Positions 39,157 through 39,400 of a stretch of DNA of 50,049 bases are shown piece by piece; position 1 is the first letter of the stretch; each line of letters begins with the position of its first letter. A program made the position numbers and the translations under genes. The DNA is from a virus (taxonomy: Duplodnaviria > Caudoviricetes), in IMG/VR virus record IMGVR_UViG_3300045912_000109, positions 1 to 50,049 of that record; one strand, written 5' to 3'. Below the pieces are notes generated by a model. That model was given only the letters and a program-made list of their open reading frames with translations. It was not told the origin of the DNA and searched no databases.

Positions 39157-39315
39157 ATGGTCAAAGGAAGCCCAATCAAACAATCGAGCGGAGGCTCTGC
39201 CACAAAGGGTAAAATCTCCACTCAAATGTCGAACTGCAACCACAAGTGGACTGCCCACACGAAGTCCGGGAAAGGAAAGTTTTCCCCACCATCGTGGGGA
39301 TGGACCGTGAAGTGA
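39157..39315 (+). CDS. 52-aa basic ORF ending across CRISPR repeat A (not in ORF track)
   Basis: A/C-rich leader, MVKGSPIKQSSGGSATKGK...FSPPSWGWTVK*. Confidence 0.5.
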   Translation: MVKGSPIKQSSGGSATKGKISTQMSNCNHKWTAHTKSGKGKFSPPSWGWTVK

Positions 39316-39400
39316 AATCCAAACACGCGATGCCCAAAAGTTTTCCCCACCATCGTGGGGATGGACCGTAAGATGAAAACTAAACACGCGATGCCCAAAA
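39279..39400 (+). CRISPR. Cas-less type I-E-like mini-array 2
   Basis: Two identical 29-nt repeats GTTTTCCCCACCATCGTGGGGATGGACCG (39279-39307, 39340-39368), period 61; the 32-mers following them are 27/32 identical. Confidence 0.88.

Follow-up and report, generated by a model that had tools for sequence, protein, structure and literature searches.

The window, that is, the whole stretch of 50,049 nucleotides that was analysed, is a complete 50-kb virus record with terminal repeats (IMGVR_UViG_3300045912_000109; Duplodnaviria, Caudoviricetes). No tRNAs were found in it, and none of the isolated phages is related to it. Neither Cas families nor an integrase could be retrieved among the 40 ORFs scanned, and searches for CasE, Cse1 and Cas1 found none of the three in the phage genome. 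This cas-less genome, from hot-spring or microbial-mat communities, carries two mini-arrays, each consisting of one spacer between CRISPR repeats. The features of both arrays and of the genes around the first, which is the subject of this analysis and lies inside the late structural operon, are listed in Table 1.

Table 1. Position of the arrays, their surroundings and the neighbouring genes in the window
Feature	Position	Strand	Remarks
Leader-like stretch of the second mini-array	12868..12942	-	A/T-rich
Second mini-array	12777..12867	-	Repeat 12867-12839, 33-nt spacer 12838-12806, repeat 12805-12777
Conserved small ORF	39157..39315	+	52 aa here, 41 aa in array-less siblings
AAA closing the upstream flank	39276..39278	+	Its AA plus G form the PAM-like AAG in array-less siblings
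R1	39279..39307	+	Repeat of the I-E class, 7-bp stem and 4-nt loop
Spacer S1	39308..39339	+	32 nt, read as a probable third allele of the site after R2
R2	39340..39368	+	Repeat identical to R1; last three bases CCG where siblings have AAG
Carrier's own protospacer copy	39369..39400	+	Spans the small ORF's sibling stop codon and the start and first 9 codons of the basic ORF
Lysine-rich ORF	39373..39486	+	37 aa; ATG at 39373 inside the second 32-mer
R3	39485..39513	+	Degenerate repeat; the basic ORF's stop codon runs into it, and 2 nt separate it from the ATG of the 309-aa gene
Structural-module gene	39516..40445	+	309 aa, conserved; anchor for finding relatives

The two 29-nt repeats R1 and R2 agree at all 29 positions (both GTTTTCCCCACCATCGTGGGGATGGACCG) and enclose the spacer S1 (TGAAGTGAAATCCAAACACGCGATGCCCAAAA), while R2 is directly followed by a second 32-mer (TAAGATGAAAACTAAACACGCGATGCCCAAAA). 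Aligned with each other, the two 32-mers are identical at 27 of 32 positions and differ only at positions 2, 4, 5, 11 and 13, so that a unit of 61 nt is directly repeated at a spacing of 61 with 92% identity. An earlier note on this DNA had described the same arrangement and the same five mismatches, and both descriptions hold. R3, the second mini-array and the share of R1 in the small ORF go beyond that note. Were five differences scattered at random over 61 nt, they would fall within a 12-nt span with P ~0.003 and all lie outside the 29-nt repeat with P ~0.034. The AAA preceding R1 recurs at 39337-39339 and at 39398-39400, a micro-homology of 3 nt at the junctions. S1 has no other near match within the window at up to 3 mismatches. 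The repeat core is matched five times in the window against 0.01 expected, a count reached in none of 100 shuffles, and each of the five forms a hairpin of a 7-bp stem and a 4-nt loop. Between R2 and R3 lie 116 nt, a possible 'second spacer' that the lysine-rich ORF would form together with these two repeats. The fold of the 291-nt region as a whole reaches a z of only -2.0. A weak promoter-like site is found near the array (39134-39161), and there is no terminator-like site on the + strand between 38760 and 39700.

The array overlaps the end of the small ORF, which takes its final 11 codons and its stop codon from R1 and the spacer's first 8 nt. In 101 of 114 related loci, an ORF of 49-57 aa stands at the corresponding place and matches the first 26 aa of the small ORF, and a database search with the 52-aa product returned no match. 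The idea that the R1-encoded tail is homologous to the C-termini of relatives was dropped, because in the sibling contigs described below the small ORF ends before R1; at their joints a stop codon immediately follows codon 41. As the earlier note had stated, the second 32-mer also holds the start of a small basic ORF. This lysine-rich ORF would be 43 aa long if begun at the upstream GTG at 39355. Its sole homologue found is a 37-aa sibling protein (P0012) with 97% identity, encoded on a 52,786-nt contig, and it has no counterpart in the 114 more distant related loci. Relatives of the 309-aa gene were recovered by alignment-based searches only, the single-protein search being empty.

Ahead of the leader-like stretch of the second array lies one copy (12929-12942) of a TATCG-N4-CGATA hairpin motif that occurs genome-wide, and a consensus scan called no sigma-70-type promoter before this array. 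Its spacer has no match elsewhere in the window, none in viral contigs (queried with N at every sixth base) and only chance-level matches (E at least 3) in phage and plasmid records.

Array-less siblings and the alleles of the site

Sibling contigs from related hot-spring/mat metagenome runs were used for comparison, and three of them (X3, X5 and X6) were compared with the window. Their flanks are ~99% identical to it, with 5-9 differing positions per 580-830 nt, and none of the three has a repeat at the array site. In the X5 contig (13,356 nt), position 39278 is joined to 39368, and AAG stands directly before an unchanged 39369-39400. In the X3 contig (14,844 nt) and the X6 contig, 39280 is joined to 39374 with four letters between, and AAG stands directly before a 32-mer changed at positions 4 and 5. 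Relative to these siblings, the repeat-spacer-repeat block of 89-90 nt is an insertion. Since the siblings have AAG directly before the 32-mer, the block lies between the AA and the G of this AAG, the G being equivalent to either 39279 or 39368. R3 is present in the sibling contigs as well, there as a solitary repeat. The array-bearing form was seen only in the record of the window and in runs X1 and X2, which are possibly its source. The runs showing the array-bearing genome, the empty sibling alleles with AAG and the allele diversity in the seed region are recorded under the same sample.

The siblings also shed light on the five differences between the two 32-mers. While the X5 allele equals the 32-mer of the window, the X3/X6 allele departs from it at positions 4 and 5 and agrees there with S1, which shares with this allele both positions and the GTG start. 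The codons AAA TCC of S1 encode Lys-Ser, and the sibling protein P0012 begins with MKSKHAMPKK; differences 11 and 13 give the Ser codon (a Thr-to-Ser change), a Ser matched by P0012 at the protein level only. No allele loses the small ORF's stop codon, and in each of them the basic ORF has a start codon, either ATG or GTG. Judging from these comparisons, S1 looks like a third natural allele of the site, a better description than the 'seed-mutated copy' of its neighbour that the earlier note had seen in it.

Against the observed sibling alleles, S1 scores 27/32 and 29/32. The mismatches in the seed are at position 2 in X3 and X6 and at positions 2, 4 and 5 in X5, so these three siblings would be escapers from S1 and not its victims. 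The test named in the earlier note was whether relatives carry either 32-mer behind an AAG-like PAM in place of a repeat. This is the case for the second 32-mer, exactly in X5 and as a variant in X3 and X6, but no exact S1 next to AAG occurs among the sequences examined. The 19-mer common to both 32-mers matched nothing in viral contigs.

Repeat class and host search

In typical type I-E arrays, repeats of ~29 nt that form a short G+C stem-loop and carry an 8-nt 3' handle alternate with spacers of 32-33 nt at a period of 61-62 nt, and the usual PAM is AAG. We assume from other I-E systems that AAG is also the PAM in the host of this phage. Both mini-arrays have this geometry: their repeats measure 29 nt and their spacers 32 and 33 nt, at spacings of 61 and 62 nt. 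A repeat pattern allowing at most one mismatch found matches in 7 of 401 genomes of one phylum, all of them repeat variants. Five of these seven genomes were tested for Cse1, and all five encode it above the Pfam cut-off, four of them on the same contig within ~6 kb. Because arrays with near-identical repeats thus adjoin Cse1 genes in cellular genomes, the repeat class is, on sequence comparison, type I-E. Among five viral records bearing related arrays, none has Cse1.

Other searches with the repeat gave little. Across the whole window, nothing in Rfam reached its gathering score, although the library may hold no model for this repeat, and at E <=10 the region 39230-39560 gave only chance-level matches to unrelated families. 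The exact repeat core did not turn up as an array in 185,579 species genomes, and a 25-nt repeat pattern had no match in a metagenome contig collection. A loop-specific version of the core has 14 single matches in species genomes, all outside arrays and most of them reading as the peptide PTIVGM. One of these matches, in a hot-spring archaeal MAG (L081), is a few bases longer than the core; as nothing else is common to this MAG and the phage (blastn, tblastx), it was treated as chance. The metagenome runs themselves contain contigs of 31-34 nt that align to R1 and R2 with 2-3 letters differing, at depths of ~5-205, the sibling phage having depths of 3-53 in the same runs. This suggests that arrays with near-identical repeats are abundant in these communities.

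Interpretation of the array

In the reading we favour, to which we assign a probability of roughly one half, the block is a mini-array that the virus carries and directs against sibling phages, while loss of the PAM and seed mismatches protect the carrier itself. This reading builds on what is observed at the locus: how the array is built, that it is inserted relative to the siblings, that AAG precedes the site in them, that the site comes in a series of alleles, that the repeat is of the I-E class and that cas genes are absent. From there, we infer transcription, processing, loading and interference. The array would be transcribed together with the tail-gene operon, host Cas6e would cut within the repeats to release a 61-nt crRNA, and this crRNA would be loaded into host Cascade and direct Cas3 at co-infecting sibling phages that carry a matching allele beside AAG. 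Two features would make the carrier immune: the repeat end CCG stands in place of AAG next to its own copy, and this copy mismatches the guide at the seed-proximal positions 2, 4 and 5 in addition to 11 and 13. The guides would then exclude kin phages, as the earlier note had proposed, and the locus fits a conflict of phage against phage run on the CRISPR machinery of the host. Against kin targeting speaks that late expression in a lytic phage gives little time for exclusion.

If the array does act on siblings, its placement to the exact base illustrates a way for a carrier to disarm the target in its own genome, namely by separating the PAM from the protospacer. Two possible origins of such arrays are suggested as well: they may be captured from a host array at the protospacer they match, or acquired into a repeat that was present beforehand. 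The locus would be a natural bacterial type I-E case in which the array genome, the empty siblings with AAG and the seed-region alleles are visible together. In the published accounts drawn on here, virus-borne mini-arrays have been validated only in archaeal viruses (PMC11656645), and the closeness of target and array is called unexplained (PMC6858448).

An anti-CRISPR decoy, which the earlier note had also named, is an unlikely explanation, if one to be taken seriously. Here, the five repeat hairpins, R1 to R3 and the two of the second array, would be transcribed in bulk and soak up Cas6e and Cascade subunits of the host, as RNA anti-CRISPRs (Racrs) and Cracr arrays do, and the identity of the spacer would be an irrelevant by-product of acquiring the block. 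The R3 of X5 differs from that of the window at three positions, all within the 4-nt loop, with stem and handle unchanged, which points to selection on the hairpin. Solitary phage repeats act as Racrs and tend to adjoin small acr genes according to the part of the literature cited (PMC10651486), and at this locus the 37-aa ORF directly precedes R3. Viral I-E Cracr arrays of 2-3 units are likewise described as competing for Cas proteins (bioRxiv 10.1101/2024.10.29.618823), and the two DNA methylase genes adjoining the second array make for an anti-restriction-like neighbourhood. However, a decoy requires no full-length spacer of 32/33 nt between intact repeats, those of I-E Cracrs measuring 21-24 nt, and a decoy function alone leaves unexplained both the placement at the junction of AAG and protospacer and the match of the spacer to an allele of the site.

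More doubtful is that the block is a guide-only homing cassette borrowing Cascade and Cas3 from the host. The block interrupts its own recognition site, between AA/G of the AAG and the 32-mer, and the empty allele is present in X5, X3 and X6; neither a cas gene nor any other nuclease gene lies in or beside it. A second guide could arise from the 8-nt handle of R2, the 116 nt of phage sequence between it and R3, and R3 itself; it would perfectly match every insertion-free sibling, for example those of the X5 type. A co-infected sibling would be cleaved and repaired by recombination from the array-bearing genome, whereby the array would be copied in. S1 would extend the reach to a second allele. 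The X3/X6 allele would confer resistance, having seed mismatches to either guide. TnpB restorative homing, phage homing endonucleases and engineered drives with the cassette at its own cut site follow the same logic. If true, the cassette would be a natural counterpart of such engineered drives made of repeats only; among the papers listed by a literature search, none brings mini-arrays together with homing or drives.

Just as doubtful is a neutral scar. A host would have taken its spacer from the AAG-flanked site, and in the course of an attack or of co-replication the phage would have copied repeat-spacer-repeat from the host array to the homologous site of its own, leaving a functionless block. 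The insertion is indeed exactly repeat-spacer-repeat with the PAM-derived G shared, S1 is an allele of the adjacent site, as would be expected of a host spacer against an earlier phage variant, and near-identical repeats are abundant in the same runs. Phage mini-arrays have also been proposed to gain spacers by recombination with host arrays, according to the passages cited (PMC6858448; PMC7099407). On the other side, R1 and R2 are identical at 29 of 29 positions and their hairpins are intact, although the insertion may be recent. The second canonical mini-array and the retained R3 make repeat carriage look habitual and not like a single accident, and the block, once transcribed in a I-E host, would yield crRNA regardless of selection.

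A plain 61-bp tandem duplication of a solitary repeat and the next 32 nt, followed by random drift, would account for two 61-nt units in perfect register that are 92% identical, and for the AAA micro-homology at the junctions. The earlier note had already doubted it, and it now appears very improbable: the siblings lack a repeat at the site and the differences in S1 correspond to natural alleles, which weakens duplication plus drift further. None of the three sibling contigs has any repeat there, and an intermediate with one repeat was not seen. Differences 4 and 5 are those of the X3/X6 allele, the Ser of P0012 results from 11 and 13, and the clustering of the differences has P ~0.003 under random placement. 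Among other I-E mini-arrays of viral contigs, moreover, none of 28 spacers (19 clusters) resembles the sequence after the last repeat, the best reaching 13/32.

An assembly chimera of phage reads and host-array reads holding an anti-phage spacer is the least credible explanation, for while the array form is confined to the record of the window and its probable source runs and repeat 31-mers are very abundant in these samples, no long word is common to the upstream flank and the repeat, the identity run between spacer and phage (19 nt) is too short for typical assembly words, both junctions are base-precise with the small ORF reading on across R1 until a stop codon within the spacer, and the same genome bears the second array and R3, the latter confirmed in sibling contigs.

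Comparison with known systems

The closest known systems are the interviral mini-arrays described by Medvedeva et al. (2019; PMC6858448, citing Faure et al. 2019) and modelled by Iranzo et al. (2020; PMC7099407). In the passages of these accounts considered here, virus-borne mini-arrays target close relatives, often at a site near the array, and the orthologous site of the carrier is mutated (PMC6858448; PMC7099407; PMC11656645). Likewise, the present locus has a one-spacer array in a cas-less virus, a spacer related to a site in close relatives, a differing copy of this site in the carrier and a target near the array. Compared with the arrays described there, this one touches its target to the base, with the PAM split from the protospacer; it is of bacterial type I-E, lies inside a structural operon, overlaps the end of an ORF and is known from sequence alone; and array-less siblings with seed-region alleles occur in the same samples. 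The abutting arrangement of array and target is absent from 19 other I-E mini-array clusters of viral contigs.

With the Racrs, or solitary repeat units, of Camara-Wilpert et al. (2023; PMC10651486) the phage shares the possession of host-type repeats without cas genes. R3 in particular resembles them, being solitary in the siblings, lying beside a small ORF and keeping its hairpin while the loop varies, and R3 alone would qualify as a solitary repeat unit there. A Racr as characterized in that source is a solitary intergenic repeat, whereas R1 overlaps the end of an ORF and R1 and R2 flank a full-length spacer, so that they are not solitary repeats. The Cracrs of Liu et al. (bioRxiv 10.1101/2024.10.29.618823), whose text also mentions the 8-nt handle, are multi-unit phage repeats, and their I-E cases have 2-3 units with a defective last repeat, a further likeness. 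In the portions of that preprint drawn on here, the spacers are short (21-24 nt in I-E) and match host cas or toxin promoters; the spacers of this phage measure 32/33 nt, and one has its match in the lineage of the phage itself.

A likeness of another sort is found in the homing of TnpB/IscB (OMEGA) elements, as outlined in the section of PMC13565253 consulted. There too, the element sits between an adjacent motif (a TAM there, AAG here) and the target, a guide is readable from the end of the element into the flank (here the last 8 nt of R2 and 39369 onward), and only the empty site is recognisable. OMEGA elements encode their nuclease; none is encoded here and host Cascade and Cas3 would be needed, so that the analogy is one of architecture and not of membership. 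Virus-borne mini-arrays as such are a known kind. New here are the array-less siblings with AAG directly before the site, and the architecture of this array is unusually informative.

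Anatomy of the array and its absence from sibling strains

The array consists of two identical repeats (R1 and R2) enclosing a spacer (S1), followed by a second 32-mer of the phage's own sequence that resembles S1 and, further on, by a third, degenerate repeat (R3). The anatomy described in the earlier note, with identical 29-nt repeats, a 32-nt spacer and a second copy matching it at 27/32, holds as claimed, the coordinates and all five mismatch positions having been verified. For five differences scattered at random over 61 nt, confinement to 12 nt has P ~0.003. The window has five copies of the repeat core, where 0.01 would be expected by chance, and a 7-bp stem with a 4-nt loop is predicted in all five repeats. 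No terminator-like site was found on the plus strand in 38760-39700; a weak promoter-like site lies at 39134-39161.

Features of the array at 39279-39513 and of the second mini-array
Feature	Position	Strand	Remarks
Small ORF	39157-39315		last 11 codons from R1; stop codon within S1
R1	39279-39307		29-mer, identical to R2
S1 (spacer)	39308-39339		32 nt
R2	39340-39368		29-mer, identical to R1
Second 32-mer	39369-39400		as S1 except at positions 2, 4, 5, 11 and 13
Basic ORF, lysine-rich, 37 aa	39373-39486		ATG (39373) inside the second 32-mer
R3, degenerate repeat	39485-39513		overlaps the basic-ORF stop codon; ends 2 nt upstream of the start codon (ATG) of the conserved 309-aa gene
Second mini-array	12867-12777	minus	repeat 12867-12839, 33-nt spacer, repeat 12805-12777
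A/T-rich leader-like stretch	within 12777-12942	minus	fronts the second mini-array

The window stretch 38700-40200 was found in hot-spring and microbial-mat metagenome runs, and contigs of four related runs (X3, X5, X6 and X8) were aligned at 80% likeness. The long sibling contigs have flanks with 5-9 differences per 580-830 nt and skip the array. In the X5 contig (13,356 nt, depth 33), 39278 is joined to 39368 with a 2-nt ambiguity, while 39280 is joined to 39374 with four letters between them in X3 (14,844 nt, depth 53), a joint also seen in X6 (326 nt, depth 6). In both sibling forms, the small ORF stops at codon 41 and AAG immediately precedes the 32-mer. Based on these joints, the repeat-spacer-repeat block is an insertion of 89-90 nt between the AA and the G of the AAG in front of the resembling site. 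AAG is the common PAM of type I-E systems, and its G is carried over into the repeat end. R3 is present in the siblings, where it stands alone; X5 differs from the window there at 39496, 39498 and 39499, all in the 4-nt loop, leaving the stem unaltered. The run table registers X3, X6 and X8 under the same sample as X1, the probable source of the window; therefore, array-bearing and array-less forms appear to co-occur.

Spacer alleles and more distant relatives

The 32-mer of X5 equals 39369-39400 of the window unchanged. That of X3 and X6 has positions 4 and 5 changed to the S1 letters, with a GTG start of the basic ORF as in S1, and this allele accounts for the S1 differences at those two positions. 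The basic ORF has no family match, and its only database homologue is the sibling protein P0012 (37 aa, beginning MKSKHAMPKK, on a 52,786-nt contig), in which a Ser replaces the Thr of the window. That Ser is exactly what S1 encodes (AAA TCC versus AAA ACT in the window), which accounts for positions 11 and 13. S1 had been taken for a seed-mutated copy of its neighbour; the mismatches at 2, 4 and 5 do lie at seed-proximal positions, but S1 reads as another allele, with the X3/X6 letters and the P0012 Ser. Between any two of the three alleles there are differences at seed-proximal positions, and each allele retains the small-ORF stop codon and an ATG or GTG start of the basic ORF. From sequence, this would look like functional alleles under escape pressure rather than drift in a non-coding spacer.

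Homologues of the 309-aa gene (29-50% identity) were aligned, yielding 34 metagenome loci and 80 viral loci (80 kept from 204). The gene order (610-aa, 154-aa, small ORF, 309-aa, 167-aa) is kept in most of these 114 loci. Within the fetched flanks, none of the 114 carries an I-E-like repeat. The basic ORF is likewise absent from all 114, which suggests that this ORF and R3 were gained as a cassette in the present lineage. A small ORF beside a solitary repeat is the layout reported for acr-racr pairs, to which the basic ORF and R3 are likened by arrangement alone. The slot separating the small ORF from the 309-aa gene contains a palindromic TATCG-N4-CGATA hairpin in 44/44 distinct variants inspected; the equivalent slot of this phage holds R1-S1-R2, the basic ORF and R3, the last directly before the 309-aa gene, where the more distant relatives place the hairpin.

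This hairpin motif has 31 sites in the window versus 0.66 expected (e.g., 1188, 6402, 7265, 7820, 12929, 19409, 24296, 30112, 42534 and 48185), frequently as CTATCG..CGATAG with a GAAA loop; many are intergenic and some lie within ORFs. It is found in 103/192 non-window loci (108/197 overall), nearly all of these being loci of the relatives, and may act in regulation or RNA processing. In the minus-strand gene block, four hairpins (6380-6440, 7245-7305, 7800-7860 and 8345-8405) are surrounded by a recurring ~45-nt intergenic element, in which a C-rich run leads into the hairpin and a similar tail comes next. It may be a promoter or terminator unit used repeatedly by the early genes.

Repeat class and carrier genome

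Since Rfam returned no match for the repeat, its class was assessed through genomic context. The repeat pattern (at most one mismatch) occurs in 7/401 genomes of one bacterial phylum. Cse1, the I-E signature gene, was found in all five of the seven that were tested, in four of them on the array's contig within ~6 kb. Among viral contigs, 64 loci carry this repeat class, many of them with one repeat only or as mini-arrays; this phage's repeat loop is in none of them. An array with the exact repeat core was not found in species genomes or metagenome contigs. In the aligned runs, many contigs of 31-34 nt match R1 and R2 with 2-3 other letters; those listed have depths of ~5 to 205 (90-205 in X3 and X8), compared to 3-53 for the sibling phage. 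As the siblings in these runs lack R1 and R2, the short contigs derive from other DNA, most plausibly from arrays with a near-identical repeat. A jumbo-size viral record (L059, 177,773 bp, terminal repeats present) has a five-repeat array at 3081-3348 whose repeat equals R1/R2 outside the loop; Cse1 was not found in it. On a hot-spring archaeal MAG contig (L081, 2509-2548), one copy of the 19-nt repeat core precedes a handle-like stretch of 7 nt and a few letters resembling the S1 start. This match, which probably lies where a coding frame ends and has no further similarity to the phage, was taken as chance.

The 50,049-bp window has terminal repeats and is a complete virus record; CasE, Cse1 and Cas1 were not found in it. 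Scans of 40 ORFs gave a DnaB-type helicase, an SNF2-like helicase, two DNA methylases, an HU-like protein, a weak terminase match and tail-fibre-like proteins, and no integrase or Cas family. A 2080-aa open frame (43809-50048) runs past the 3' end of the record, and the frame at the 5' end (1-1071), whose start matches an internal virion protein family, is open as well. The giant gene of 2080 aa probably continues over the record ends, so the record would be either circularly permuted or closed through its terminal repeat. The second mini-array, with a single spacer, is located downstream of both DNA methylase genes. Its spacer has ~67% G+C by letter count, compared to ~50% for the genome, and it matched nothing in the window, in viral contigs or in phage and plasmid records. 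The two repeats of this array are close to R1/R2 only in the portions that would enter a mature crRNA.

Possible roles and origins of the array

The best reading, with a probability of about 0.5, is a virus-borne mini-array aimed at sibling phages. The array would be transcribed along with the operon, its transcript processed by Cas6e and the crRNA loaded into Cascade, leading to Cas3 attack on siblings. With the array directly adjoining its target and the PAM removed, the carrier would have double protection, from the CCG flank and from seed mismatches. Such kin exclusion was proposed in the earlier note, which suggested looking in relatives for either 32-mer behind an AAG-like PAM instead of a repeat. 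The array-less siblings do contain the second 32-mer in that setting, unchanged in X5, which partly supports the proposal; however, no exact S1 target was seen, and the observed siblings, mismatching S1, would escape it. Also against this reading, the phage shows no sign of lysogeny and carries the array in a late operon; apart from the window's record, the array-bearing form is known from the probable source runs alone (X1 and X2).

A decoy role like that of Racr or Cracr is unlikely for the array as a whole, although the loop-only variation of R3 and its adjoining small ORF favour it for R3; such decoys are described in PMC10651486 and bioRxiv 10.1101/2024.10.29.618823. It is rather doubtful that the block copies itself into array-less siblings through guide-directed cleavage and repair from the carrier genome. 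R2, the phage's next 116 nt and R3 could yield a long guide matching every X5-type sibling, which would be cleaved and then repaired from the carrier, copying the block. The layout mirrors TnpB/IscB elements, in which, according to PMC13565253, the guide is read from the element end into the flank and the motif lies on the other side. For E. coli Cascade, PMC5009729 reports that interference was kept with spacers extended by 12 nt; the putative 116-nt guide is far beyond this. A neutral scar from recombination with a host array is just as doubtful. Plain duplication is very improbable given the sibling and allele data, and an assembly chimera is the least credible explanation, the junctions being base-precise and the shared words short.

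Concerning origin, we infer three routes that would fit the structure. Repair or copy-choice might have been templated by a host array holding spacers from this site. Alternatively, a phage genome cut at this PAM may have integrated into a host array at its leader end and then been excised between flanking repeats, which would give exactly upstream flank, repeat, old spacer, repeat and protospacer. In the third route, a solitary repeat would have come first at the PAM junction, after which a sibling's allele was acquired via host Cas1-Cas2, or a 61-nt duplication was followed by allele exchange.

The reading as a mini-array aimed at siblings can be set beside published virus-borne mini-arrays, for which PMC6858448, PMC7099407 and PMC11656645 describe spacers against close relatives, targets near the array and a mutated site in the carrier. 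In 19 clusters of 2-4 repeats from 64 viral loci, some being parts of longer arrays, 0/28 spacers resemble the 32 nt after the last repeat (best 13/32, versus 27/32 here). The present array is of the same kind as the published ones, but it abuts its target and removes the PAM; what is unusual is the informative architecture and population context for a known kind of element.
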